Shown here piece by piece: positions 606-53,804 of a stretch of DNA of 64,000 nucleotides. Position numbers and translations under genes: made by a program. How positions within the stretch are numbered: the first letter of the stretch is position 1; every line of letters starts with the position of its first letter. A model generated the notes under the pieces. The model was given only the letters and a program-made list of their open reading frames with translations. It did not search any database and was not told the DNA's origin. Where the stretch lies: positions 806,001 to 870,000 of the forward strand of contig CAVNZM010000010.1 in the NCBI GenBank assembly GCA_963693365.1. Direction: 5' to 3'. This DNA is from Amoebidium appalachense (lineage: Eukaryota > Protista > Ichthyosporea).

Positions 606-16752
<16,147 letters not shown>

Positions 16753-26039: not shown

Positions 26040-26813
26040 CACAAACACTCTAACTCAGAGTAGGCATACAGCAGTGTGTAGATGCTAATCGAGATAATAG
26101 TGCGCGTGTTGACAAGAGGCTACTATTACACTCCGACTTTCCTTGGCTTTCTTAGTACCACCCTCTATCCATATTTACACTATCCTATGATCTTGGTGAG
26201 CCGGACACGGCCAGGGTGTGACGATAATACAGAGCCTGCAGTGCTTGATACGTTGAAGTTGGAAATGCTGGTGGAGGCCGATCAGTCTTGACACGTGCAT
26301 GGGTGTAGCTCAGATATAGTGTAAATGGATCTGAGCTACATACCTATACACCCGTGCACGTGTCAAGACTGATCGGTGTGCTTTCTTCGCCATCAACATG
26401 TACCGCCCTCATGGACTGCTCCCCACGTGCACCCCGGGGGTCAACCTTCTGTGTTCTTCTGGTTGGCTCTGTTGGCCACCGGTACCTGCACCCTCTTCAC
26501 CGGCTACCTCTACGTTTCCACCGTCAACCTGGGACAGCCAACCACCACCGTCACCGACTACTCCGACCCCGGATTCATCAACGCATCCACCAGCATTTCC
26601 AACGGCAACGTATCAAGCACTGCAGGCTCTGTATCATCGTCACACCCTGGCCGTGTCCGCCTCACCAAGGTATCTGTAGTGTAATGGATAGAGAGTGGTA
26701 CTAATAAAGTCAAGGGAAGGAGTGTAATCTGAGCAAGATCTTGTCAACACGCGCACTATTGTCTCGAGAGTATCTACACTGCTGTATGCCTACTCTGAGT
26801 TAGAGTGTTTGTG
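26040..26813. repeat. Long inverted repeat (~235-bp arms) enclosing a second ~100-nt hairpin
   Basis: 26040-26275 is an imperfect reverse complement of ~26586-26813; inner hairpin CCGATCAGTCTTGACACGTGCA...TGCACGTGTCAAGACTGATCGG at 26278-26376. Confidence 0.9.
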
Positions 26814-26841: not shown

Positions 26842-27552
26842 TTCGCGGAGAGCCCAGTCTGCACATGATCCAATAGGAGAGGACTTGTATTTTCCATTCC
26901 CAGCCTCGGACGGAGGCTGGGTTTTTCCCAGCCTCGGTCGGAGGCTGGGTTTTAGGAGATAGAGAGGGGTATGGGGGGAGGAAAGACTGAGCTGTTTGGC
27001 GCCGCAATCAGCTAGCGGAATAGATGGTGGGAACCTCCAATCAGGTGCGTTAATCTAAGCGGATCTAGGAGTGTGGCGTTTTTGGAACTGTTGGCCAATT
27101 AAACGCCTTAAAAAAAAAGCAAGGCCTTACCGGGCTAAAGTTTTGGTGACATTAATCGGAAATGGCATTGTGTGATTGGTGCATTGAAAGTTAGATCATC
27201 TGTCGACAATCGTAAATTGCTGATTGGCCATCTAACTTTAATTGAATAAAGCATAGAAAACGCAGGCGCATGGATCTATAAAACATGTGATCGTCTGCCA
27301 ATCACCTATTCTACCGAGGTCTGGAGCGATGCATTCCGCATCGTGATGCTATTAAGGGATACGGGATCGGCGATTTTGAGTGGTCCCCGATTTCTTTCTG
27401 GCGCCGCCTTTTTTTCCCCTGATTACGTAACGCGTTGCTACGCACCCACACCGTACAACGAGTTTTGTGTTCGCACGTTAACGCAGAGGGCGCACAACCC
27501 GAAAGAATTTTTTTCATGAAAAGAAACTACTTTGAATACATGCACTTTTACC

Positions 27553-28940
27553 ATGGGTGTGCAGGGCTTGCTCCCAGCACTCGGCATTAGTGCCGAAAAA
27601 GCCACAGATGTTACTGCAGAGTTGCAACGTGGGGTAGTTGCTTTTGACGGGATGGTGCAGGTCCACAAGTCCTTTTCAGTTTTCGCTGACACAGTAGCCA
27701 AACAGCAAATAGATGACAAAAAAGTCACAGACGACACATATGCTGCTATTGCAAATCACTTTTATGTCCAAAGTTAATACGTATAGGCTAGCAGGGGTCC
27801 AGCCACACTATGTGTTTGATGGGCGCAGATTGAAAGAGGGAAAACTAGTTGATAACGACCGTGCAGAAAAGGTGGTCAAAGCCCGCCAAGAAATAGCCAC
27901 AAAAAGAGAGAAACAGGAGGAGGTAATTAAAACCAACTTGAAATGGAGAAGCGCTGCAGAGTTAGATAACAGAGTTTTACATGCAATCATCCTTAGACTG
28001 AAAGATGAGAATGTCGATTACACAGTAGCTCCATACGAAGCAGACCCCCAGCTTGCCTATATGGCACGTACCGGTTTGGCACACACTGTTGTCACTGAGG
28101 ATGCCGACCTTCTTCTGTATAACATCCCGCGGGTTGTATACAAACTGCGCATTGCGGATGCGGCGGTCATCCCTGGGACCGCTAATGCGGTGCGCATTCC
28201 CAAACTGTACGGAGTGATTGTAACCCCCGCCGATGTTTTTACCAGAAGCACAAAGTACAACTTCGACGGATGGGATATAGAAATACTGCGTTATTTTGCT
28301 ATTGTGAATGGCTGTGATTATGTGAAAAAGCTCAGGGGAATCGGCATGGGCACTTTGCACGCAGCTGTAAGTGAGGCGTGCCGGGCCTGGGGACGCGAGG
28401 GAAGGCCGGTAGCTGCGGGGGTTGTGTTCACAGATCTGCTCCAGCATATCCAACGGGTCAGAAAGGGGAAAAGAGGGAAGGAAAAGCCCGTTAAAAGCAC
28501 AGAAAACAAGCAGGGTGGGGACGAACGGGCAGGAAGAGTCGAAATCGGACGGAAAGGAGGTGAAGCAGTGGAGGAAGAGGTTGAGTGGTGGGATCTTGAA
28601 TACGAACATGGAACGTATGAAAACGGGGCTGAGGTGATGAGGTTATAGAGATGCAATGATGAGGGTGAAGAGGTTATAGAGATGCAATATGCAGATGGTA
28701 CGAAAAAGAGGCGGATAGTAGGACCAAGTGTAGAAGAATTGGCCCAATCATACAAGCCTGACCTTGTAGGGCTCCGTGCATTTGTACAGCAAATAGACCC
28801 TACTGGACACAAGTATAGTTTTACCTGGAATGAAAAGTTTATGGTGCAAATGTATCCATCCCATCATACAGGGCAGAAAACCACAAAAAGTGGAAGAAGA
28901 AGAAGAAGAACACGAACACTGAAAATGCAACTGAATGATT
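27553..28940 (+). pseudogene. Intronless EXO1/XPG-FEN1 family PIN 5'-nuclease, frameshifted
   Basis: MGVQGLLPAL..VVAFDGMVQVHK (XPG-N); frameshift in TTTT at ~27761; GVQPHYVFDG, YTVAPYEADPQLAYM, VVTEDADLLLY (XPG-I), IVNGCDYVKKLRGIG (H3TH); second break at ~28630-28690 from a duplicated GAGGTTATAGAGATGCAAT. Confidence 0.9.
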
Positions 28941-29004
28941 CTGTTTTCCTTCCTTTTTTTTTTTTTTTTTTTTTTTTTTTTGTTTACGTTATCTTTCATA
29001 ATGT

Positions 29005-29035
<31 letters not shown>

Positions 29036-31836
29036 GGGGGGGGTTAGTAATCTTCTGACCGATCTAGTGAACCTGTAATGAATGAATGAAGACCGTGTGT
29101 CAAATCTGAGAGCAATGTACCAGACCCTGGTGCCTGCATATGTTTCCTACCCCCCCCCACCCCCCCCACCCCTCCCCCCGGTCCCTCCTCCCCCCTTGGT
29201 GTTTGCATACGTGCCTACCTGCCCCCCCCCCCCCCCCCCCCCCCCCCCGCGGATCAGCAAACTTCATCCGGCATCCGAAACCCATCTTATATATCATTTT
29301 GATATATGGCATACCAAACCCCACCCTAAATACGTCAAAAAGAGCCTGACAAGATATCATAGAATTCCCGGATAGAACCCATCAGATCCCTATCAATGAT
29401 ATCTTTGATAGGGTTCGGATTGGTTATGGTATGGCGCATATCCGAAACCCATCCTTTGCTGATATCCTTACGATATCCTTACGATATCATAGAAAACCAC
29501 GATGGTTTTGGTTTTTGACCGAAAATCTCAAAATTTCCTCATAGCATTATGATATCCATATGCTATCCTAGTGATATGTATGTTAGCAAGGTCATAATAG
29601 CTCTTTTGGATATGTTTCACATACGTTTAGGATATTGGTGCCCCAAACGATATCTGTTAGATGTCTTTGTTATAGCCTACAGATATCCCTCATTATAGAA
29701 TATCTTAATCCCATCCAATACGCATTACATGACGATATCTACCTGATGTCGTGGGACAATACAAATTGATATCCACGTGATATCTGATGGATAACATGTA
29801 TGCTTATAAATTGAATATAATACAGATGTTGTTTTGATATCGTCTGGACATCGTTGTGATGTACCTACAACCATTTTTTTGATATCGTTATGCGCCCATG
29901 GGGGTAATCCAGAAGATACCCTTGTACACAACCAGTAGGCATGTTGAAGACATCCTTTTGATATCCTTTCGGATATCCCTTTGTCCACAGGCCCAAGATA
30001 TGATATCTAATTCATATCATTGTACAGGTCGTAAGGATATGTACCAAATATATCTAAATAAAGACTTGTGATATATGTGATTGGTATGTGTAAGATGCCC
30101 CTATGTACATCAATGTGATATGCTGTAACTTATCATTTGAATATCCCGCTCTGTCTAAAACGGCAGCATTGTGGGTATCCTTTTGATATTCTTTTTGATA
30201 TCCCTTTTATATTCAATATGTTATCTGTTTTTGGTCCTACATCTCAAACATATCACAACTGCCTCTTTGCAGGCCCAAGCTACGATATCTAATTCATATC
30301 TTTGTACACGTCGTAAGGATATGTACCTGATATATCTAAATAAAGACTAGTGAGTTGTGTGATTGATATCGGTAAGATGTCGCTATGTACATCAATGTGA
30401 TATGCTGTAACCTATCATTTGAATATCCTAATCTGTCCAGAGCAGTAGTCCACGAGGTATCATCTACATATCTTTTAGAGGCCCTTAGATTATCATTGCG
30501 ATATCCGCATAGGGATATATTTATATATCGAATTCATAAGTATATGATACATAAGCTTGCCATCCCAGTGATATCTAAGCGGCAGTATTGTGGATATTAG
30601 AAAGATATCAGAAGAACATCCGTGCAGTAGAAGGTCAGTGTCTTTTGTAAGTACATCAATGTGATATCTAAACGGCAGCATTGTGGATATTAGAAAGATA
30701 TCAGAAGAACAATCGAAAAATCCTTTAGATGTCTATTAGATGTCCGATGAGAATGGTTGCGATATACGCGCAAAGAAAATTTTTGTGATCAAGCCAGCTG
30801 AGCAATCGTTGGGAAACCCGCCAATTACTCACACGGGGCATTGCGGGGCTCATTGCGGCCATCTGAATGTGATGGTGGCATGGCCATTTATATAGGGCCA
30901 GGAAATCACTTTTCCGTTCGATTGTGGGACGAAAATCACAAAATGGCAAACCCGATTTTGATTGGTTGTTATTCTTCAAAACGGCATGCTCAGGGTCACC
31001 CAACTGTGATCAGCCAATCACGTTTCATGTTTAATTGAGATTATCGCATACATCTAATGAAGATATGTTTCTGCCATCTTTACGACATCGCAACGACCTG
31101 ATCTTCTATGGTCTGATCTTGTACATATCCCACAGGGGTCATAAACATCTCATAATGATATTTGTTAGATAAACACGCAACCACAACGGCCGCAAATAAA
31201 ACTAAATTACCCCATTTGGCAAGTGCCATCTGGCAGAGTGTAAATTGCGAACGTCCGAAACACTAAACACTAGGCAAAATAGAGCAATCTAGTAACTACA
31301 TAGTACCAATTTCGAGCATCGAAGCAGGAAAATGGTTATTTATTGCAATTTTATATTTTGTGTGTTCCGAGGATGTTACCACCTTTGAAGGTTTATTAGC
31401 GCCTGAAAACAATACCTTACTGCATTAGGGCGGGTGCACATCACAGGCACGTGCACATTCTCCGGACACCAGATGATATATCGCAAGATATCCGTACGAT
31501 ATCTAATGTATGTATTGTTGATATCATTCTATTCTCATGCATCGTAGTTATAATGAACGTTACCATTTTATGACTATTTATGATATAAAACGCTAGTTAC
31601 GCTTGTGCTTTCTATAACCGGTAACGCACGTTAACATTATGCCTCCGCGCGCGTGAACTACAAAGTATGTGAAAACTGCAACGTAGTGATACACACTCTT
31701 CTTCTGAACCTATGTCGTCAATCATGACACACACACACACACACACACACAGCGAGACACGCACGCTGCCACACACACACACACAAACACACACACACAG
31801 AGAGAGATACACACACACAGACAGACACGTTGCCCT

Positions 31837-31867
<31 letters not shown>

Positions 31868-31900
31868 GCCACACACACACACACACACACAGGCACGTTG

Positions 31901-31987
<87 letters not shown>

Positions 31988-32000
31988 ACCATGCGCACCT

Positions 32001-32050
<50 letters not shown>

Positions 32051-32125
32051 ACACACACACACGTACATACACACACCCAAACACATGCCCGTGTGCACGT
32101 ACATCGGTAGACACGAACGCGCGAG

Positions 32126-32161
<36 letters not shown>

Positions 32162-32270
32162 GTTCACATAAAGACAGGGTACACCACGGTTGCCTCGATA
32201 TTCCTCTGTTCTTTATCTACACATTCTCGGCTCACTCTCCCGTTCATAAAATATCTCCTCCCTTGTAGCA

Positions 32271-34182
32271 CCTTGTAGCATAGTATATGTACATATGTTA
32301 CCTAGACATTATTGGTTTTTCAATAACTACCCACAGAACAGCCTCTAGCACGAGAAATTTACCACAACGTTTATGGGGGGGATGGTAAATGTGCCCCTGG
32401 AGTACGAGGGTCACACGAAAAAAACACAACCTTGTAGCTCGAATAGAACCCCCCTTGTAGCATAGTATAAGTACATGTGTTACCTAGACATTATTCGTTT
32501 TTTCAATAACTACCCACAGAACAGCTTCTAGCACGAGAGCTTTACCACAAAGTTTATGGGGGGGATGGTGAATGTGCCCCTGGAGTACGAGGGTCACACG
32601 AAAAAAACACAACGTTGTAGCTCGTATAGAACCCCCCTTGTAGCATAGTATATGTACATAGTATGTTACCTAGACATTATTGGTTTTTTCAATAACTACC
32701 CACAGAACAGCTTCTAGCACGAGACATTTACCACAAAGTTTATGGGGGAGATGGTGAATGTGCCCCTGGAGTACGAGGGTCACACGAAAAAAACACAATG
32801 TTGTAGCTCGAATAGACCCCCCTTGTAGCATAGTATATGTCCATGTGTTACCTAGACATTATTGGTTGTTTCAATAACTACCCACAGAACAGCTTCTAGC
32901 ACGAGACATTTACCACAACGTGTATGGGGGGGATGTTGAATGTGCCCCTGGAGTACAAGGGTCACACGAAAAAAACACAACGTTGTAGCTCGTATAGAAC
33001 CCCCCTTGTAGCATAGTATATGTACATAGTATGTTACCTAGACATTATTGGTTTTTTCAATAACTACCCACAGAACAGCTTCTAGCACGAGAGCTTTACC
33101 ACAACGTTTATGGGGGGGATGGTGAATGTGCCCCTGGAGTACGAGGGTCACACGAAAAAAACACAACGTTGTAGCTCGTATAGAACCCCCCTTGTAGCAT
33201 AGTATATGTACATATGTTACCTAGACATTATTGGTTTTTCAATAGCTACCCACAGAACAGCCTCTAGCACGAGAGATTTACCACAAAGTTTATGGGGTGG
33301 ATGGTGAATGTGCCCCTGGAGTACGAGGGTCACACGAAAAAAACACAACATTGTAGCTAGAATAGAACCCCCCTTGTAGCATAGTATAAGTACATGTGTT
33401 ACCTAGACATTATTCGTTTTTTCAATAACTACCCACAGAACAGCTTCTAGCACGAGAGCTTTACCACAACGTGTATGGGGGGGATGGTGAATGTGCCCCT
33501 GGAGTACGAGGGTCACACGAAAAAAGCACAACGTTGTAGCTCGTATAGAACCCCCCTTGTAGCATAGTATATGTACATAGTATGTTACCTAGACATTATT
33601 GGTTTTTTCAATAACTACCCACAGAACAGCTTCTAGCACGAGAGCTTTACCACAACGTTTATGGGGGGGATGGTGAATGTGCCCCTGGAGTACGAGGGTC
33701 ACACGAAAAAAACACAACGTTGTAGCTCGTATAGAACCCCCCTTGTAGCATAGTATATGTACATATATATGTTACCTAGACATTATTGGTTTTTCAATAA
33801 CTACCCACAGAACAGCCTCTAGGACGAGAGATTTACCACAACGTTTATGGGGTGGATGGTGAATTTGCCCCTGGAGTACGAGGGTCACACGAAAAAAACA
33901 CAACATTGTAGCTCGAATAGAACCCCCCTTGTAGCATAGCATATGTACATGTGTTACCTAGACATTATTCGTTTTTTCAATAACTACCCACAGAACAGCT
34001 TCTAGCACGAGAACTTTACCACAAAGTTTATGGGGGGGATGGTGAATGTGCCCCTGGAGTACGAGGGTCACACGAAAAAAACACAACGTTGTAGCTCGTA
34101 TAGAACCCCCTTTGTAGCATAGTATATGTACATCATACGGTATGTTACCTAGACATTATTGGTTTTTTCAATAACTACCCAC
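32271..34182 (+). repeat. ~184-bp satellite array, ~10.4 copies
   Basis: Unit CCTTGTAGCATAGTATATGTAC...CAATAACTACCCACAGAACAGC...GGAGTACGAGGGTCACACGAAAAAAACACAAC...AGAACCCC starts at ~32271, 32453, 32636, 32821, 33004, 33190, 33372, 33555, 33740, 33927, 34110. Confidence 0.97.
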
Positions 34183-34293
34183 ATGCGGCATGTGTTACTT
34201 TCACGTTATTGGTTTCCTAGCACGGGATATTCAGCACACAGTTGGGGATGTGGGGGCAGTGTACACCTCAATATTGGTAAGGTGGTGGGTGGG

Positions 34294-34332
<39 letters not shown>

Positions 34333-34868
34333 CCACACAACCGAAACTGTCGGTGTTACAAGTGGTTCGGTCTTAAGAAGTTAGAACGGTGATTTTTTAA
34401 TTAATAGCGGGAAACAATATTATCCCCATTGCATATGGGGGGAACGAGGAGGGGGGGAGGGGGGGGGGGGGGGGGGGTTCACAACGAATTCTATCGACTG
34501 TGCATAATTAATGTATATTGCACATGTAGCCTGAAAGATTAAAGTGAATGTGTGTATGTATATGGGCGAGTATATTTGTGTATGCAATACATGTACAATG
34601 TTTTCGTCTTTGTAGGTGGGTGGGTGGGGTGGGTGGGGGGGGGGGGGGGGGGGGGGTGCGCGGGGGGGGAAGAGGGAGGGGGGAGGGGGCATCATGATCA
34701 GGGATAACAGGGTGTGTGCGTGTGTGCGCTTGTGTGTGCATGTGCTGTGTGTGTTGTGTAGGTGTGCGCCTGTGTGTGTGTGCGTGCCTGTGTGTGCGCG
34801 CCTGTGTGTGTGTGTGTGTGTGTGTGTGCAGTGTGCATGTGTGAGTGTGTGTGCGTGCGCGCGTGCGC

Positions 34869-34899
<31 letters not shown>

Positions 34900-35244
34900 T
34901 GTGATTTCAAAGAAGTCGAAAGCGCCAGTGACACCCATGTTGAAAAAAAGACAAGCAAGCACGCTAAGAAGGACAGCAAGAAGTAACAGAAACCCTTTCA
35001 TGCCGAAAAAATGGTCAAGAACAAAGAAGTGGAGGACACGTAACTATAGCCTGATAGTTGTGACTAAGGGCACTAAGGGTAGCGCTAAGGGCACCAAGCT
35101 GATGCACGCGCGCGCGCGAGCCGAAATCTATTTTTATCTTTTTCCTAATCAGGCGCGGCGAATAGTGATTGGCTAAATCCCAATCCGGTTTGCAATTTTT
35201 TTCTCCATTTAAGCCTGTACGCACGTTGTTTTCTCCATTTCTCT

Positions 35245-35350
35245 TCCCCCTTCCCGCAGGTCCGCAGGTCCTTTCCCGCAGGTCGCCTGGTCGCAGGTCC
35301 CTTCCCGCAGGTCGCCTGGTCGCAGTTCCCTTCCCGCAGCGCCTGGTCAC
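35245..35350. repeat. ~29-bp GC-rich minisatellite, 3-4 copies
   Basis: CCCTTCCCGCAGGTCGCCTGGTCGCAGGT repeated. Confidence 0.8.
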
Positions 35351-36820
35351 AGATCCCCTCCGCAGATCGCGCAGCCACCGTGCTGATTGTTTTGGACCAT
35401 GCTGCATGCTGCAGCTTCTTCTTGAAGGTTAGTTTTGTGTTGCCTGCTTTTGTGCATATGGCGTTTGTCTGTCTGGTCTGTGTCTGTGTCTGTGTGTGTG
35501 TGTGTGTATGTGTGTGTGCGTGCGTGCGTGTGCGTGTGTCTGCTGGCTGCAGATGCACGTTGCCTTTCACGTTCATGAACCAGCGACTGTGGGCACTACT
35601 TTTGCTGTTAGCACTATAGCTATCATCCCCTCCACCGATCGTTCAAGCTATTTTCTGCTTCTCTAGACTTCATAAGTTCTGGTCCGGGTTTCCGTCCTTA
35701 CTATGTTTAAGGTTGGTTCTGTCGACTCTTTTTTTGCCACTCTCAGTCAGCCCCCTCAGTTCCCCCCCCCCCCCCCTCCCCCCACTTCTCGCAAGTAGGA
35801 TGAGCTAATTCTTAGCTCGAGTTCCTTTACAGGTTTTGGCAAGGTTGGCCCATGAAGTCATCAGCAGCTATAAGGCTACGTTATCATCTAGAGGTGGGTA
35901 CCGGCTCTTTGTCCTATGGCTGCTGTTGTTTCCGTTTTTCGTTTCATAGGTGGGTACCGGCTCTTTGTCCTGTTAAGGTAAATAAAGTATGGAGGCAAGA
36001 CCCTGTGGGTCTGGTTCTTTGTCCTATGGCTGCTGTTGTTTCCGTGTTTCGTTTCTGTGTTGCTCTTATAGCACATGAATGATCATGTGCATGTTTAGCA
36101 CCCATAGGTGGGTACCGGCTCTTTGTCCTGTTAATTACTCTGCCGGCATTTGGTATGGTATGGTTTGGTGTAAGAGTGCCCCCCTTATATTGTCATGTTG
36201 GGCGTCCTTTTTTTTTTTTTTGGGCCTCATACCCATACACACACACCTTGTTACTCTTCTGTCAAGGGATTAGCATGTGTTTAGTTTAATGATGTTGGGA
36301 GCTTCTTAGAAACCCGCATAATAGTTTGCTTGTTTTGAGTTTTGTTTATGTTCGTTGCTGCTCTTTTATACTCCTTCCCCCCCCCCCCCCCCCCCACACA
36401 CACACAAAAGAGTGACTTTTCTTTTTTTTTCTTTTTTTCTTTTTTTTTGTGTGTGTGTGTGCGAAGAGAAAAAGTAACAGAGCTTTTTATTATTTTTATT
36501 ATTATTATTATTATTTTGTGTGTGTCTGTGTATTTATTTTGTGTGTTTTCGTAGTTCGAATAAATTGTGTGAAGACATGTCCCGAGGACATGTCTTTAAA
36601 AATATTTGTCTTAGAAAATATTTGTCTTAGAAAATATTTGAAGTGACAGACACGCCCCAGTGGGACATAACCCTACGTAAAAGTTAATAGATGAGTTATA
36701 GTTGACACGTTCCAGTGGGACGTGTCTGCAGAAAATGGATCTGTAATCAGCGGCTCGACGACATATGACCACGTGACAGGCAGGTTCGAAAGGGGTGAGG
36801 GGCGGGGGGGGGGGGCCGGT

Positions 36821-36853
<33 letters not shown>

Positions 36854-38061
36854 AAACGACATCAAACAGTGATCGGAAACGACGTCTGGATGATATCAAC
36901 TTTGAAAATGGCTCAATCATATATATCAAGACATAACATAATGATATGAAAAGGATAATATAACTATATTGCGAAAATCATTCTTAATAAATCTTAATTA
37001 TACCTTAAATTTATCGTTTTGATATATGTGCTGTATGTCAAAAAGATGTGACAGAGTTATGTTAACGATATGCTACTAATATCATAAGGAATGGTTAGCT
37101 GATAAACTACTATATGTTTTAACGATATGTCACAGATACTAGAAAGATGTCGTGTAGAGGACATACAGCCAGAACTTCTCATATCTTTAAAGGCTCCTAA
37201 AACTATCAAAACGATATTATTACGAAATTTCTTTTGACCCATCCTAGTTATCTTTATGTTATGAGGCTTATATCGTTATGACATTTAACGTATGATCTTT
37301 AGATAATGTTTTCGGCATCCTATACCTATCCGTTGTATATGAAAAGGACATCTGTAATAGTATCTTATAGATGTATTACCATATACGAAACCTCCTATAA
37401 TGACCTCGAAATGATATCATATAGATATATATGTATCTTATGATCGATTATCATATATATCGTAAGGATATGTGATAGCTACCATAAGGATATGGGGAAG
37501 GGCTTCTAATCCGCTATTAGAGATATCTTTATTATGTCTAAAACGCTTCTGAACATCAGACTAAAAAGATTTTATGATATCAAATAGACTATCATAATGG
37601 TATCATACGGATATAACGAGGTTGTTGAATACATGGAACACAGGATAGAACAACGATGGGTTCAGGGTGCTCCGTATGAGCCCATTATGAGATCATTTTG
37701 ATATCTAGCAAAAGATACCAAAATGATATCCAGAAAACCCGTGATAGCAAAACGATGCTGTTATGTTATCTAAAAGACAAGAGGGGGATAAAGAGTGGCA
37801 AAAAGATGGGTTTATGGGTTTATGATATCTTTAATGGGTTTTTAATGGGTTTCGGATGCCGGATGAAGTTTGCTGATTGCGGCGGGCGGCCCTCCCCCCC
37901 CCCCCCCCCCCCAACACGTGTGTGTGTGTGTGGGGGGGGGGGGCATGCGTGTGTGTGTGCAAATGCGTGTGTGCAAATGCGTGCGTGCGTGCGTGCGTGC
38001 GTGTGTGCGTGCGTGCGTGCGTGCGTGCTTCCGTGTGTGCGTGGTTGTGTGTGTGTGTGAA

Positions 38062-38105
<44 letters not shown>

Positions 38106-38232
38106 GAACGACTCAAGGTTGTACTTGGCACACAAATACATAATAATTTCAATTATTATTATTATTTTCCTATACAGGAAAAGTGGAGCCCTACTGGCCG
38201 AATACATACATGCAAGCATTCATTCATATTTT

Positions 38233-38297
<65 letters not shown>

Positions 38298-38360
38298 AAA
38301 AAAAAAAAAAAAAAAAGCAGAGAAGGGGGCTTTAGGGAGAGGCAATCGAAAACGAAAATT

Positions 38361-38790
38361 CTACACCATGCTTTTGGTGTGCCCGGGCCCCACCATATCC
38401 TTATATAGTGGCTCTTGCATGTTACACAAGAAAGCCACAGCCTTAGCTACCATCCAATGGGTGCCTACCATCGACATCTGCACCTGATTGCTAAACAGCC
38501 GATAATTTTTCATGCGCCCAAAAGCCCTCTCACTGCTCGTCTCCCCCCGCTCCCTCGCTCGTTTCCGTGTTTGCTCAATATCTGAGGCATCCATTCCTAC
38601 AGCTTGCATATGACTATTGGCCCTTTCTTTCCTCCTGCCTGCCTATAGCATTTAACCAAGCATGCCTCCTAGCCAATACATTTGGTTTGCATCCATATGG
38701 AACAGTAAAAAGCTTTATCTTCCTGGTAGGATCTTTGGGAGAGACTGTTTCTTCGTCATTTTTGCAGTAGTTAGCCGCGCAAGTTGGCAT
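38361..38790 (-). pseudogene. Internally deleted transposase: N-terminal THAP domain joined to a DDE_Tnp_4-like C-terminus
   Basis: From ATG 38790: MPTCAANYCKN...KIKLFTVPYG...RRHAWLNAIGR (THAP C-x4-C, F-x-x-P, R-x-x-W), then GPIVICKL in a shifted frame. After the deletion: RERGETSSERAFGRMKNYRLF...LCNMQEPL*, matching the R..VER.IG..K.Y...LCN.Q.PL tail of ISL2EU/Harbinger-type transposases. Confidence 0.75.
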
Positions 38791-39652
38791 TGTGAGTGCC
38801 TAACATATATAGGTAGAAAACAACCCGCCTTCATGAAAAATGTGCAGCGCAGTTTTGTCCGGACACGTGTGTGGCATGCCGTGTGTACATGGTATAGTTC
38901 GGCCACACGATCTTAGGTGCCCAATAGGCAGATCAAGCCCACTCAATCCAGATAGATATCGATCTGAGCGGCGCCAGAAAGTATTCTAGCCGCGCGATCC
39001 CGTATCCCTTAATTGCACGAGATCGCCATCGATCGAAGATACCAGATAGTTCTGCGAGGCGAGCGAAGCGAGCCGCGCCGGGGCGAACGCCGCGCCGAGC
39101 GCAAGCGAGCCTCGGCAGTGAGCCCGGACGACCGAGGCTGGGCCCACAGCGATATGGCGTAGCCATTGAGCTCATTTATATTCAACTATTACGAATACCA
39201 ACTGATAAACAAATGAATAAACAACCAATCGGAACTCTACATTCTCGGACTCCCAGTACATCATACTGTACATGCAATGCCAATCTTCCAAACGCATGCG
39301 CATGGGCCACACAACTATTGGGACTCGTGCAGGGGCTGTCCCAAGCACTCATACATAGCAGGGGCATAACACATGGGCCACATGGCATGTCAAGATGCAG
39401 ATCTCTGTTGTCATAGTGATGTATACGTAGGGCTACCTTTCACGTAATGGTGTGACGTCATGATGAGGTAATTGTAAAGGACTGTGTACTACTGTACGTG
39501 TACGTGTCAAATGTTTGCTATCTACATGTATGCATATCATAGTAGCTTGCAGAAACGATAAACAAAGCGGGGGACTACGAAGGGGTGACTGACGCGTATA
39601 ATTTAACAGCTAGGCTCACTTGTGTTCTTTTAACACCACTGCCCCCCCCCCT

Positions 39653-43341: not shown

Positions 43342-44140
43342 TCACAAAACCATAACATGGGCGAAAACCGCACACACCATCATCAAAGTCGATCCTACAC
43401 CCACCCTCCCAACCCCGGACTTATTTCCCGTCTGACTGCCAGCTGTCGCGCCGACCGCACCGTTGGAAGGTGGGTCGGAACCTTGGCCCGATTCGAAATT
43501 CAGAGCATCGAACTGAACCATAACCCCAAAATGGTCGCTCAGGGGAACCTTGTTCCCATTTTTCAGCGGAACGACATTTTCATTAAAGACAACACGGCCC
43601 GGCAGCTCCCTCGGTTTTTCCGATCCAGGCCCGAAAGCCGACCCGATTGTCAAAATGTGATCGATCCGCGATCCGATCCCCCTCCAGCATGAAGTGCAGT
43701 AGTTGGCCGGTGGCACGGAAACGTTCACCCACAGGTATTCCTTTACTAGAAGGTTCCACGAATCGATATCTGATTGAAGAATGTCGACACCGGGCTTGAA
43801 AGATGTGTCGTTTCTGGCCTTGCCCCACCCACAATTCATATCTCCCGCCAAAATGAAATTCGACACGTTATTTTTAGCTCCCTGTTCCCGCGCAACGCTG
43901 TACACCCGCCTAATTTGGTTGTGTTTCTCTTCAGTATTAGTGGTCGCGTTTCCGGCAAATCCCGCGACGTAATTTGTGTCATTTCTCGATCCGGGGGTGA
44001 TGTGGGTGCAAAGAATTCCGACCCTTTGTCCGTCTGTACCCACTATCCCCTCTGCGTACACGACGGATCGGTTTACACCAATCATGAGCAGAGGCTCAAC
44101 GGCAACGTTTTTGAGTGGCTGTTTGCTCGCAATGACAATG

Positions 44141-44185
<45 letters not shown>

Positions 44186-44328
44186 ATGTGCATGTGTGTG
44201 TGTGCACATGTGCGTGTGTGGGTGTAAATGTATGCGTGTACATGTGTGCTAGGGTGTGTGTAGGCGCTCGGTCTACAGGTGTTCTTGTGTGTAAGGATGG
44301 GAGGGGAGCTACATGCCCAGTGTGTGTT

Positions 44329-44385
<57 letters not shown>

Positions 44386-44936
44386 GTGCGTGTGCGCGCG
44401 TGCGCGCGGATGTGTGTGTGTGTGTGTGTGTGTGTGTTTTTTGGGAATTCGCTTTGGGGCTGTGGTGGTTGAGAAGGCGGGAGGGCGTACAAGGGGGGAG
44501 GGAGGGGAGAGGGGGGAGGGCGTCAAGGTCAGTGATTTTGCCTAACAACAAGCCCCCTTCGAGCCCAACATCAGCCCAACCACCAGACACTTGAACCAAA
44601 AGAAAAGCGCAGGGGAAAACCTTCACCCATACAAGGTCACGATAAACTCCTTCGATGAAAAGTACTCAACCTCAATATCCCAAAGCCCTCCCTCCCTCCC
44701 CCAATATATATATATATATATATATATATAACCCCCCCCCCCCCCACACACACACACGCGCGCATACACACATACCGCACAACCCGCCTAACCCCCCCCC
44801 CCCTCCCAATTCCCAACCACTCGATCCACCACCATCCACACACATTCACACACACACATACACACACATACACCCACACCCACACCCACACCCACACACA
44901 GCTCCCCGGCAGACTGTGATGTACCCAATGCCAGCC

Positions 44937-47179: not shown

Positions 47180-48290
47180 TAGTGCACCATCGCACGCGTG
47201 ACCCCCCCCCCCCCCCCCCCCCCCCCCTCCCCCCCCCCCCCCCCCCCCCCCCCCGGGGGGTGTTTTTGCCGCGCGGTACCCCTGATATTGTAGGTGTACA
47301 CTGCCCCCACAACCCCAACTGTGTGCTGAATATCTCGTGCTAGGAAACCAAAACGCGAAAGTAACACATGCTGCATGATATATGATGTATATGGTACAAG
47401 GGGGGTTTCAATCCGGGCTAAAATGTTGTGTTTTTTTCGTGTGACCCTCGTACTCCAAAGGCACACTCACCATCATCCCCATAAACTTTGTGGTATATTT
47501 CTCGTGCCAGACGCTGTTCTGTGGGTAGTTATTGAAAAAACCAATAATGTGTAAGTAACGTATGTACATATACTATGCTACAAGGGGGGGTTCTATTCGA
47601 GCTACAACGTTGTGTTTTTTTCGTGTGACCCTCGTACTCCAGGGACACATTCACCATCCCCCCCACAAACTTTGTGGTAAATTTCTCGTTCTAGAGGCTG
47701 TTCTGTGGGTAGTTATTGAGAAACCAATAATGTCTAGGTAACATATGTACCGTGATATACGATGCTACAAGGGGGGTTCTATACGAGCTACAACGTTGTG
47801 TTTTTTTCGTGTGACCCTCGTACTCCAGGGGCACATTCCCCATCCCCCCCATAAACTGTGTGGTAAATTTCTCGTGCTAGAAGCTGTTCTGTGGGTAGTT
47901 ATTGAAAAAACCAAAAATGTCTAGGTAACATATGTACATATACTATGCTACAAGGGGGGTTCTATACGAGCTACAACGTTGTGTTTTTTTCGTGTGACCC
48001 TCGTAATGCAGGGGCACATTCACCATCCCCCCCATAAACGTTTTGGTAAATTTCTCGTGCTAGAGGCTGTTCTGTGGGTAGTTATTGAAAAAACCAATAA
48101 TGTCTAGGTAACACATGGACATATACTATGCTACAAGGGGGGTTCTATACGAGCTACAACGTTGTGTTTTTTTCGTGTGGCCCTCGTACTCCAGGGGCAC
48201 ATTCACCATCCCCCCTTATAATTTGTTGTGAATTTCTCGTGGTAGAAGCTACTCTGTGGGTAGTTATTGAAAAAACCCGATGCTTATAAG
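47180..48290 (-). repeat. Second, inverted copy of the 184-bp satellite (~5 units) plus shared unique 3' flank; possible Helitron-like element end
   Basis: 47390-48290 is the reverse complement of the 32-34 kb unit; 47285-47377 matches 34182-34275; the minus strand ends G-run...CACGCGTGCGATGGTGCACTAA|T. Confidence 0.85.
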
Positions 48291-51139: not shown

Positions 51140-52887
51140 GATACATTTGCACGGTTGATAACGTGCAGGGGATTGATGGGGGCCCAACCAAACTTTGTAT
51201 TAGGCAGTGTCTCTGTGTGGGTGATGTAACAAAACCGGTCGGATTGTCCCCCCATTTCTATGGGAAAAGTTATTGACCGTTGTACGTCCATATTAGGCAA
51301 AACGCGCTGTAATACATAGGGAAAGGGGGGGGATTCAACGGTTAATAACGTGCAGGGGATTGATGGGGGCACAACCAAACTTTGCATGAGGGAGTGTCTC
51401 TGTGTGGGGGGTCTAACAAAACCGGTCGGACTGTCTCCCCATTTCTGTGGGGAAAGTTATTAACCGTTGTACATCCATATTAGGCAAAATGCGCTATAAT
51501 ACATAAGGAAAAGGGGAGGCCTCAACAGTTAATAACGTGCAGGGGATTGTTGGGAGCACAACCAAACTTTGCATTAAGCAGTTTCTCTGTGTGGGGGGTC
51601 TAATTATCCCTACTATAATCCCCTGCCGTTCCAGGCACCCACAAACTCTGCTAGTTGTTGTACCCCCGCAGCATCCGATTCGTTCTCTTATGTATTCTCT
51701 TTCAAGTATGCCAGCAATCCCACGAAACCCCCATAAAACCGTCATTGTTATATGTATCCAGAAGGCCGTGCCACCAGTTATTATTTACAATTTTACAAGA
51801 AAATTAATAACATCTATATTACACATATCTGTCTAATGATAGTGGTATCATATAGCTATACAGCAGCCCCTCCAGATGCTCAATTAAAATGTACACAGCC
51901 CGGGTTTTTTACTACTAGTGCTAATTTATGTGAGTTCAACATGGCCTGCCATGACCATCCTATCGATACGGTAAACCCATCCATCAGGCGGGGTTTCAGA
52001 CGTCAAATGACAGTCTTACGATGGGGCATCATAATATCATCTAACGATGTCGTAATTTGCAGGTGTTTACGACAAACATGGTGACTGTGTCGTGGACCTT
52101 CAAATGGATACTGTAAACCAATCCATAAGGCGGGTTTTCAGACGTCTATTGACAGTCTTACGTTGGGTGTCGCAAGAGCATGTTACGATATCGTACTCTG
52201 GGGGGGTTTACGACAACTAATGGTTGTCGAGGACGTTCATATGGATATTGTAAACCCATCCATTCGACGGTTGTTTCCGACGTCTTAAGACAGTCTTCCG
52301 AGGGGGTGCAGCAAGACCATCCTATGATGTCGTAATCCGGAGGTGTGCACGACATGTAAACCAATCCATTAGGCGGGTTTTCAGACGTCTATATATTGAC
52401 AGTCTTACGTTGGGTGTCGCAAGAGCATGTTACGATATCGTACTCTGGGGGGGTTTACGACAACTAATGGTTGTCGAGGACATTCATATGGATATTGTAA
52501 ACCCATCCATTCGACGGTTGTTTCCAACGTCTTAAGACAGTCTTCCGAGGGGGTGCGGCAAGACCATCTTATGATGTCGTAATCCGGAGGTGTGCACGAC
52601 ATACAGTGTACATCCAATGTATGGGGTTAGGAGTACCACAAAAGTTGTGGTTGCTGTAAACCCATCCATAGGTGTGGTTAGGGTTATACATTGGGCTGTC
52701 CAAATACTGTCGGTCATCCCTAAAGGGGTCGTAAACCAATCCGCCGACGGTCTACGATGTCGTCGACGGGTTTGGAGGTTTTTCCTTCATATAGCGTAAA
52801 CCCATCCATTAGACAGTCCTAAACCAGTGCCAACCCATCGACGAGGTCTTCGGTGGGGTTACGAGGGGGGGGGGGGAGATTGCTGAT
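51140..52887. mobile_element. Right arm of a subterminal-repeat-rich DNA element (EnSpm-like), truncated
   Basis: ~187-bp unit x3 (AACGTGCAGGGGATTG at ~51160, 51347, 51535), ~247-bp unit x2 (52113-52590), recurring GTAAACCCATCCAT/TACGAC motifs; ends in TTGCTGAT like the 37.87-kb TIR. Confidence 0.5.
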
Positions 52888-52889
52888 GT

Positions 52890-53804
52890 ATGAAGGAGCT
52901 TGTTGCCCACATCACGAAGTCTGCCGAGTGCAAGGTCGGTCTGCCAGACATCTTCCTCGGCACCCAGCTGCTGTACACCAATTACTCCCTCAAGCTGCTG
53001 CAGTCCTCCTACATCAAGGACATCATCACCGACTTCAACCTGGCCGATGCCAAGCCCAAGGCCACCCCCATCCACGTGGGCACCGTCATCATCAACGAGG
53101 CCTCCCTCTCCTCCCTGCCCACCACCATCCCCTACCGTGAACTCCTCGGCCGTCTGCTGTGGGTTGCTCGGTGCTCCCAACCTGACATCTCATATGCCAT
53201 TTGCTACCTCGGCCGTTTCAGCTCCAAGCCCACCAAGACTGCCTGGAAGCTTCTCCTCCGTGTCGTTCGTTACCTGATCGGCACCATCAACCTCGGCCTC
53301 TACTACAAGAAGAAGGCCCCCAACAGCAAGGTGCCCATCCTTGAGTGCTACTCGGATTCTGACTTTGCTGGCTGCCCCACCACCCGTCGTACCACGTCTG
53401 GGTACGTCATCCTCCTCGAGGGCACCCCCGTCACCTACCACTCCAAGCTGCAGTCGATCACTGCCACTACCACATGTGAGGCCGAGCTCCTGGCCCTCAA
53501 TGCTGCCGTGCAAGATGTTGCCTGGCACCGTGATCTACTCAAGGAACTGGGCTACCCCATGACCGAGCCCACCCCGGTGTACTGTGACAATCAGTCCACC
53601 ATTGCTCTGGTCCACTCCAACACCATCAAGCACCGGACCAAGCACATTGCCGTTCGTTACTTCAACACCAAAGACTACATCAACAGTGGGGACGTTACCG
53701 TCACCTACATCGACACCAAGAAGAACCTGCCCGACATCTTCACCAAGCCTCTGGCTGGTCCGGCCCACGAGACACACCGTGCCAACCTCAGTCTTCGTGA
53801 CTGA
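52890..53804 (+). CDS. Ty1/Copia pol fragment (RT C-terminus + RNase H), 5'-truncated
   Basis: PYRELLGRLLW, QPDISYAICYLGRF, LLRVVRYLIGT, YSDSDFAG..TTRRTTSGY, TTCEAELLA, VYCDNQSTI, HRTKHIAVRY, NLPDIFTKPL: canonical Copia RT/RNase H motifs. Confidence 0.95.
   Translation: MKELVAHITKSAECKVGLPDIFLGTQLLYTNYSLKLLQSSYIKDIITDFNLADAKPKATPIHVGTVIINEASLSSLPTTIPYRELLGRLLWVARCSQPDISYAICYLGRFSSKPTKTAWKLLLRVVRYLIGTINLGLYYKKKAPNSKVPILECYSDSDFAGCPTTRRTTSGYVILLEGTPVTYHSKLQSITATTTCEAELLALNAAVQDVAWHRDLLKELGYPMTEPTPVYCDNQSTIALVHSNTIKHRTKHIAVRYFNTKDYINSGDVTVTYIDTKKNLPDIFTKPLAGPAHETHRANLSLRD

Follow-up and report, generated by a model that had tools for sequence, protein, structure and literature searches.

What kind of transposon joins a transposase to a nuclease related to EXO1, and what would such a nuclease do in it? 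The question is raised by a 64,000-nucleotide (nt) stretch of the ichthyosporean Amoebidium appalachense (assembly GCA_963693365.1, contig CAVNZM010000010.1, positions 806,001 to 870,000), hereafter the window, whose own coordinates are used throughout. Within a single pair of inverted repeats it carries an EXO1-like gene and the remains of a transposase gene. The original prediction, made from the letters of the window, was that of a two-gene element pairing a THAP-DDE transposase of ISL2EU type with a nuclease of the EXO1/XPG family. It is supported here by the target-site duplication, the type of transposase and the presence of the second gene: the locus is very probably a non-autonomous copy, with internal deletions, of an ISL2EU-like cut-and-paste transposon that has multiple copies, targets AT and includes an EXO1-type nuclease gene. 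ISL2EU-like elements, described from animals, would thereby extend to an ichthyosporean.

Ends, target site and copies of the element

The element is bordered by an exact inverted match of 19 nt (27351–27369 and 38995–39013), found where it had been predicted. An 18-nt core of this repeat occurs at two sites in the window when up to three mismatches are allowed; shuffled sequences contain 0.03 on average and none of 100 shuffles reaches two. The two outermost letters on each side are the left and right copies of an AT target-site duplication (27351–27352 and 39012–39013), so that each terminal inverted repeat proper has 17 base pairs (bp): TAAGGGATACGGGATCG at 27353–27369 on the plus strand, and its identical counterpart at 38995–39011 on the minus strand. 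Further inside, a motif of the left end (27394–27407, plus strand) has an inverted copy at the right end (38968–38981, minus strand). Its inverted arrangement had been recognized earlier, its length had not (14 bp instead of 13); it is likely to be a binding site of the transposase.

The target site was read from empty sites. Window positions 27060–28945 were compared with the contigs of four (X2, X5, X9 and X14) of the 24 listed public sequencing runs, X14 being perhaps an RNA run and the right arm lying outside this region, and the empty-site and flank records given here are among the matches listed. At least four X9 records run along the left flank as far as 27353, where they pass into 30 letters all equal to 39015–39044, i.e. 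they join the two flanks without the element. At least two further X9 records and one X14 record show the same join with variants. Only two solutions fit both symmetric ends and the inserted length, an AT duplication (27353–39011) or none (27352–39012), the former being formally indistinguishable from blunt insertion between A and T. Duplications of TTAA or of 3 bp are ruled out because the inserted length does not fit them if the ends are symmetric. Provided that the related empty sites match the target, the element is 27353–39011 with a 2-bp AT duplication, one of the two duplications first considered, and the ends initially placed at 27356 and 39008 are corrected accordingly. T-AT stands at three left junctions and AT-T at one right junction; the repeats start with TAAGGG. 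The surrounding sequence (27060–27352 and from 39014) is itself a repeat of the host, dispersed and represented in the compared runs by many divergent copies.

Other left flanks are found ahead of T-AT and the terminal repeat, one in X2 and one in X14, so at least three insertion sites are likely. In the second X14 record a foreign flank of 124 nt leads into the terminal repeat, the nuclease start and on through to 28197 within one contig. The prediction had been open to repeat-bounded copies devoid of the nuclease; this contig unites a different flank, the repeat and the nuclease start. The nuclease is covered by contigs to a depth of 979 in X2 and 120 in X9, against 26–42 and 12–23, respectively, for single flank contigs. 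This contrast would be in keeping with a copy number of several to tens, although depth is itself no copy number. We consider it probable that the nuclease is a regular cargo of this multi-copy element. A metagenome scan with the nuclease gave no match in 592 stretches. A second scan, with the terminal repeat, returned 36 matches, none accompanied by the subterminal motif or by a tblastn match to either protein; they were attributed to chance.

The nuclease and the transposase

The nuclease gene (27553–28648, plus strand) is intronless and starts 200 nt inside the left repeat, in agreement with the prediction. Pfam recognizes XPG_I on 27713–28645 (E 1.3e-13) and, weakly, XPG_N on 27553–27774 (E 0.074), the two being separated by a frameshift at 27760. 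The main contigs of all four runs have one base fewer at 27760 (as well as six fewer at 27935 and five fewer at 28856), and in these the frame is therefore open at 27760. The window copy ends at an early stop (28646–28648), which falls within 23 nt (28632–28654, plus strand) resembling the adjacent downstream sequence. This filler marks a likely deletion junction: longer versions of the nuclease are signaled in X9 and X2/X14 by loose ends at positions 28631 and 28655, and the fifth X14 record, of 1,043 nt, aligns by its last 30 nt only and leaves 1,013 nt unaligned ahead of 28655. The short, window-like junction is also present in X5 and X14. Thus this copy probably lacks at least 1 kilobase (kb) of the nuclease gene that is found in longer versions. 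The following segment (28655–28940, plus strand) is likely a C-terminal remnant of the nuclease and bears no recognized domain in Pfam, homologue and EXO1 C-terminal profile searches; none of 55 candidates is a longer nuclease protein bearing this piece. We rejected its assignment to the end of the EXO1 domain, as it does not match the EXO1 C-terminal profile, and set aside as chance an RHS-repeat identity from ESM Atlas clusters (low recognition, about 100 shared features).

The transposase gene converges on the nuclease gene from 38790, on the minus strand. Its start and the first half of a THAP zinc finger lie at 38617–38790 (Pfam THAP on 38790–38617, E 2.9e-4). The linker and the last 55 or so DDE residues (DDE_Tnp_4 positions 102–158), without the first two catalytic aspartates, lie at 38361–38633 (last third of DDE_Tnp_4 on 38642–38364, E 1.4e-4). 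Both matches are below the Pfam curated cut-offs, but THAP reaches E 1.1e-8 and passes its cut-off in P0042, a fuller protein of transcript origin. The segment 38361–38633 is 98% identical to residues 189–278 of P0042, whose residues 57–188 are deleted here. The homology of this right-end remnant to THAP and to the tail of DDE_Tnp_4, on which the prediction had been made to depend, is thus recovered. The loss of the transposase core, the frameshift at 27760 and the probable deletion in the nuclease agree with the earlier view that this copy is dead.

Five Amoebidium proteins of EukProt are 96–99% identical to the products of the element, P0001 and P0051 to the nuclease and P0042–P0044 to the transposase. 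They bear transcript-assembly names, which suggests that both genes are transcribed, although carry-over of DNA into the library is possible. An 11-nt motif, TTTTTCATGAA, is found at about 27510–27520 on the plus strand and at 38829–38839 on the minus strand, in each case 35–40 nt ahead of the start codon; it may be a promoter element common to the two genes.

The affinity of the nuclease is with EXO1. In the PDB its best solved relative by sequence is EXO1 (E 5e-19) rather than FEN1 (E 8e-9). A fold search with a predicted model (mean predicted local distance difference test score, pLDDT, 74) ranks EXO1 1 to 14, with EXO1-flap complexes among the matches; this is not independent of the sequence because the alignment behind the model is mostly EXO1-like. 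XPG_N, XPG_I and the helix-hairpin motif, together with seven acidic catalytic residues, are features that the protein shares with the EXO1 subfamily of XPG/FEN1 nucleases. We aligned it with 128 of 192 relatives, the 64 without a full domain being dropped. The nuclease keeps the full set of seven acidic residues, as well as the equivalent of R92, at columns conserved to 99–100% in the 128 relatives; the correspondence follows human EXO1 numbering, and D173, D225 and R92 occur in PDB titles. Overall identity to these relatives is nevertheless low (best 33%, median 28%, versus 37% among the others). In a FastTree tree of 100 rows (29 near-duplicates dropped, no FEN1, GEN1 or XPG outgroup) the branch of the nuclease measures 1.76, the median being 0.43, and the placement of the protein is without resolution. 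Catalytic residues kept despite so long a branch suggest long selection for activity.

A HMMER search of 1.84 billion representatives gave 3,224 matches; only two beat 1e-30, both of them the Amoebidium transcript itself, and the next are 30–44% identical. THAP, DDE, SWIM and YqaJ are absent from all 148 matches scanned (82 at E 1e-3 and 66 at the stricter E 1e-7), and a SWIM-like pattern from 198 proteins. Identity of at most 33% to any aligned protein excludes a recent retrocopy. The prediction had named a near-identical retrocopy of the host EXO1 as its possible undoing, and none appeared, the host's own EXO1 not being identified among the compared proteins. Judged from these alignments, the nuclease is an old, divergent EXO1-type enzyme. 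Single-protein queries of viral contigs were negative in two sets, of 26 and of 7 stretches. An alignment query returned one of 12 stretches, a giant-virus flap nuclease with 28% identity across 120 residues; the listed frames of its contig include no transposase. These comparisons lend no support to a viral origin. Within 5521–7994 of that contig (L037) the flap-nuclease gene stands beside an apparent major capsid gene.

Known transposons and the possible role of the nuclease

Published families are compared here from excerpts of the papers cited. ISL2EU belongs to the PHIS superfamily and has terminal repeats of 6–259 bp (PMC4482050, PMC4122938, PMC9179366). In these excerpts it combines an AT duplication, a THAP-helix-turn-helix-DDE transposase and a YqaJ exonuclease encoded by its second gene, and occurs in animals only (PMC4482050). 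As a rule its candidate autonomous members encode a nuclease in a second gene, its repeats "usually" start with GG and its target is A|AT|T. YqaJ is named in 13 rows, all animal, of the 25-family table, and supplement 1 lists transposases with THAP at 426–576 residues and contains the term XPG zero times (PMC4482050). The Amoebidium element shares with ISL2EU the AT duplication, a THAP and DDE_Tnp_4 transposase, short terminal repeats and a nuclease as second gene, and the ISL2EU-like reading is supported by the first two of these and the second gene. It differs by an EXO1/XPG-type domain, and not YqaJ, in the readable part of that gene, by repeats that begin with TAAGGG and not GG, by flanks T-AT and AT-T instead of A|AT|T, and by its protist host, all 25 families of Han et al. 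having animal hosts. We regard it as a variant of ISL2EU and not as a strict member, because the presence of YqaJ and the transposase tree are undecided and the ends depart from GG.

Other groups fit less well. Spy is the sister of ISL2EU, mostly has one gene, lacks THAP and inserts in AAA|TTT (PMC4122938); none of these characters fits the element, although its junction is formally readable as a blunt insertion. In HeLa cells Spy is mobile when nothing but its transposase is supplied (PMC11304231). PIF/Harbinger, Pangu, NuwaI/II and PHISTA share a DDE_Tnp_4-type transposase and a second gene with the element. As excerpted, they have 3-bp or TA duplications (TA in PHISTA) and a Myb/SANT or unknown partner, with no THAP described (PMC4482050, PMC12730594); the Harbinger partner is Myb-like and not a nuclease (PMC4482050, PMC9179366). 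The 3-bp TWA duplication of PIF/Harbinger does not fit symmetric ends here, and the scanned frames contain no Myb/SANT match. Compared with eukaryotic EXO1, its best match by sequence and fold and alike in catalytic residues, the nuclease has at most 33% identity, does not match the EXO1 region past the helix-hairpin motif and lies inside terminal repeats. AcademX, also a DNA transposon with an extra nuclease, is said to have an XPG-like one fused to its transposase. That transposase is unrelated to the one studied here and makes 3–4-bp duplications; the lengths of AcademX and AcademH duplications have been linked to nuclease versus helicase (PMC10045372). No description of the pairing of a THAP-DDE transposase with an EXO1/XPG nuclease was found in the open literature, most papers being judged by their listings and Repbase, Dfam and most subscription journals being outside the search; the main text of the preprint on the genomes of the genus, in the part available, names neither ISL2EU nor Harbinger (bioRxiv 10.1101/2024.01.08.574619).

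Several observations weigh against the reading of the locus as an ISL2EU-like element with its own nuclease. No intact transposase was found: the core of the DDE domain is lost from P0042 as well, and P0043 terminates with no DDE domain. Since the copy is moreover dead, this window taken alone is of limited value. Linkage of nuclease and transposase within one pair of repeats is demonstrated at this locus only, and a part of the nuclease gene that is probably 1 kb or longer (the 28631/28655 gap) lies outside the sequence read. The empty sites belong to related copies of the host repeat and are not proven to be the orthologous site, and assembled contigs may be chimeric across repeats. The P0051/P0001 transcript keeps the frameshift at 27760 and adds a second at 28060, so broken copies are transcribed too. 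In the nuclease two basic residues of the arch are changed, a K conserved at 99% being G (with K one place later) and an R conserved at 93% being V. Finally, filler such as that at 28632–28654 is also found at deletions in nuclease-free transposons and therefore shows no role of the nuclease.

As to that role, both EXO1 and lambda-type YqaJ digest DNA 5'-3' from ends. We tentatively propose, with a little less than even confidence, that the nuclease resects donor ends and that a sister copy then serves to refill them. An intact copy would supply the transposase, which would bind the terminal and subterminal repeats, excise the element and insert it at AT. The nuclease would then resect the 5' ends at the donor break, leading to homology-directed gap filling from the sister copy, which would restore the copy at the donor and raise the copy number. 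Interrupted gap filling would give rise to deleted copies like this one, still movable by intact copies; in P and Ac/Ds elements it reportedly leaves filler copied from nearby sequence, a pattern that the 23 nt at 28632–28654 would fit.

A different and less probable role would be in the cutting machine itself: the transposase would nick the 3' ends, and the EXO1-type enzyme would cut or trim the non-transferred 5' strand, or the 5' flaps left once the strand transfer is complete, in the way that TnsA cuts the non-transferred 5' strand for Tn7. FEN1/EXO1 enzymes do cut 5' flaps, as the EXO1-flap complexes among the fold matches recall, and the regularity of the second nuclease gene in candidate autonomous ISL2EU (PMC4482050) and the AcademX/AcademH duplication lengths (PMC10045372) would also accord with it. 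But Spy transposase is active in HeLa cells without a partner nuclease (PMC11304231), and Harbinger relies on a Myb-like partner. Resection is favored over such cutting because Spy transposase works alone and because EXO1 and lambda-type YqaJ have end resection in common. It also appears improbable that the missing kilobase of the intact second gene holds a YqaJ domain (or a SWIM finger), in which case the EXO1 domain would be an addition and not a replacement. The longer versions, with their loose ends and 1,013 unaligned nt, offer room for a YqaJ domain, but the 6 first-scanned and 83 further reading frames of the element, i.e. the sequence present in this copy, contain no trace of YqaJ or SWIM.

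We find it very unlikely that the nuclease is a mere passenger, i.e. an EXO1/FEN1-like gene that came from a host or a virus in a single capture and has no role in transposition. This would account for the lack of a close relative outside the genus in the HMMER search, in a genus with many giant-virus insertions (bioRxiv 10.1101/2024.01.08.574619), giant viruses being carriers of XPG-type and YqaJ nucleases (PMC3493329). It is at odds with the catalytic residues kept over a long branch, with a gene start that mirrors that of the transposase and shares its 11-nt upstream motif, and with the distance of the sole viral relative found. Least likely of all, and hardly credible, is a TTAA-targeting element of Kolobok or piggyBac type with ends GGG...CCC, which the originally predicted coordinates would imply. 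Kolobok duplicates TTAA. So does piggyBac (PMC4122938), and TTAA does flank GGG and CCC on both sides of the locus; yet the empty sites are without TTAA, the inserted length misfits and the transposase tail matches DDE_Tnp_4.

To return to the ISL2EU-like element with donor-end resection, an unrelated 5'-3' nuclease holding the position of YqaJ would suggest, by analogy, that selection acts on the activity and not on the fold. One could go further and suppose that every ISL2EU-type transposon is accompanied by a 5'-3' exonuclease of one of two unrelated folds, the EXO1 type being ancestral in eukaryotes and YqaJ a replacement in animals; this generalization is speculative and rather unlikely. 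If true, ISL2EU-type elements would encode their own end-resection step, which would turn cut-and-paste into copy-gaining transposition. The literature covered holds no test of the function of the YqaJ partner in ISL2EU, and swapping or inactivating the nuclease makes the role of such a partner testable.

Nested insertion and neighboring features

The element is interrupted, in a C-rich run, by a separate insertion (29247–37883) with its own inverted ends, a perfect repeat of 33 bp (29253–29285 and 37845–37877). Its removal leaves an element of 3,022 bp, which matches the unit of about 3 kb originally predicted. No transposase domain is present in the frames scanned of this 8.6-kb insertion. 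Its arms are AT-rich and contain many GATATC-like motifs, and it includes a tandem array of ten units of 183–186 bp (32271–34227), an inverted relative of which lies 13 kb off (47422–48215).

Elsewhere in the window, a unit resembling a miniature inverted-repeat transposable element (26040–26813) has inverted ends of 38 bp and an inner inverted repeat of 87 bp. By eye, the frame 43342–44541 (minus strand) has motifs of an endonuclease/exonuclease/phosphatase family protein, and the frame 52887–53804 (plus strand) appears to be a remnant of a copia-type reverse transcriptase/RNase H.

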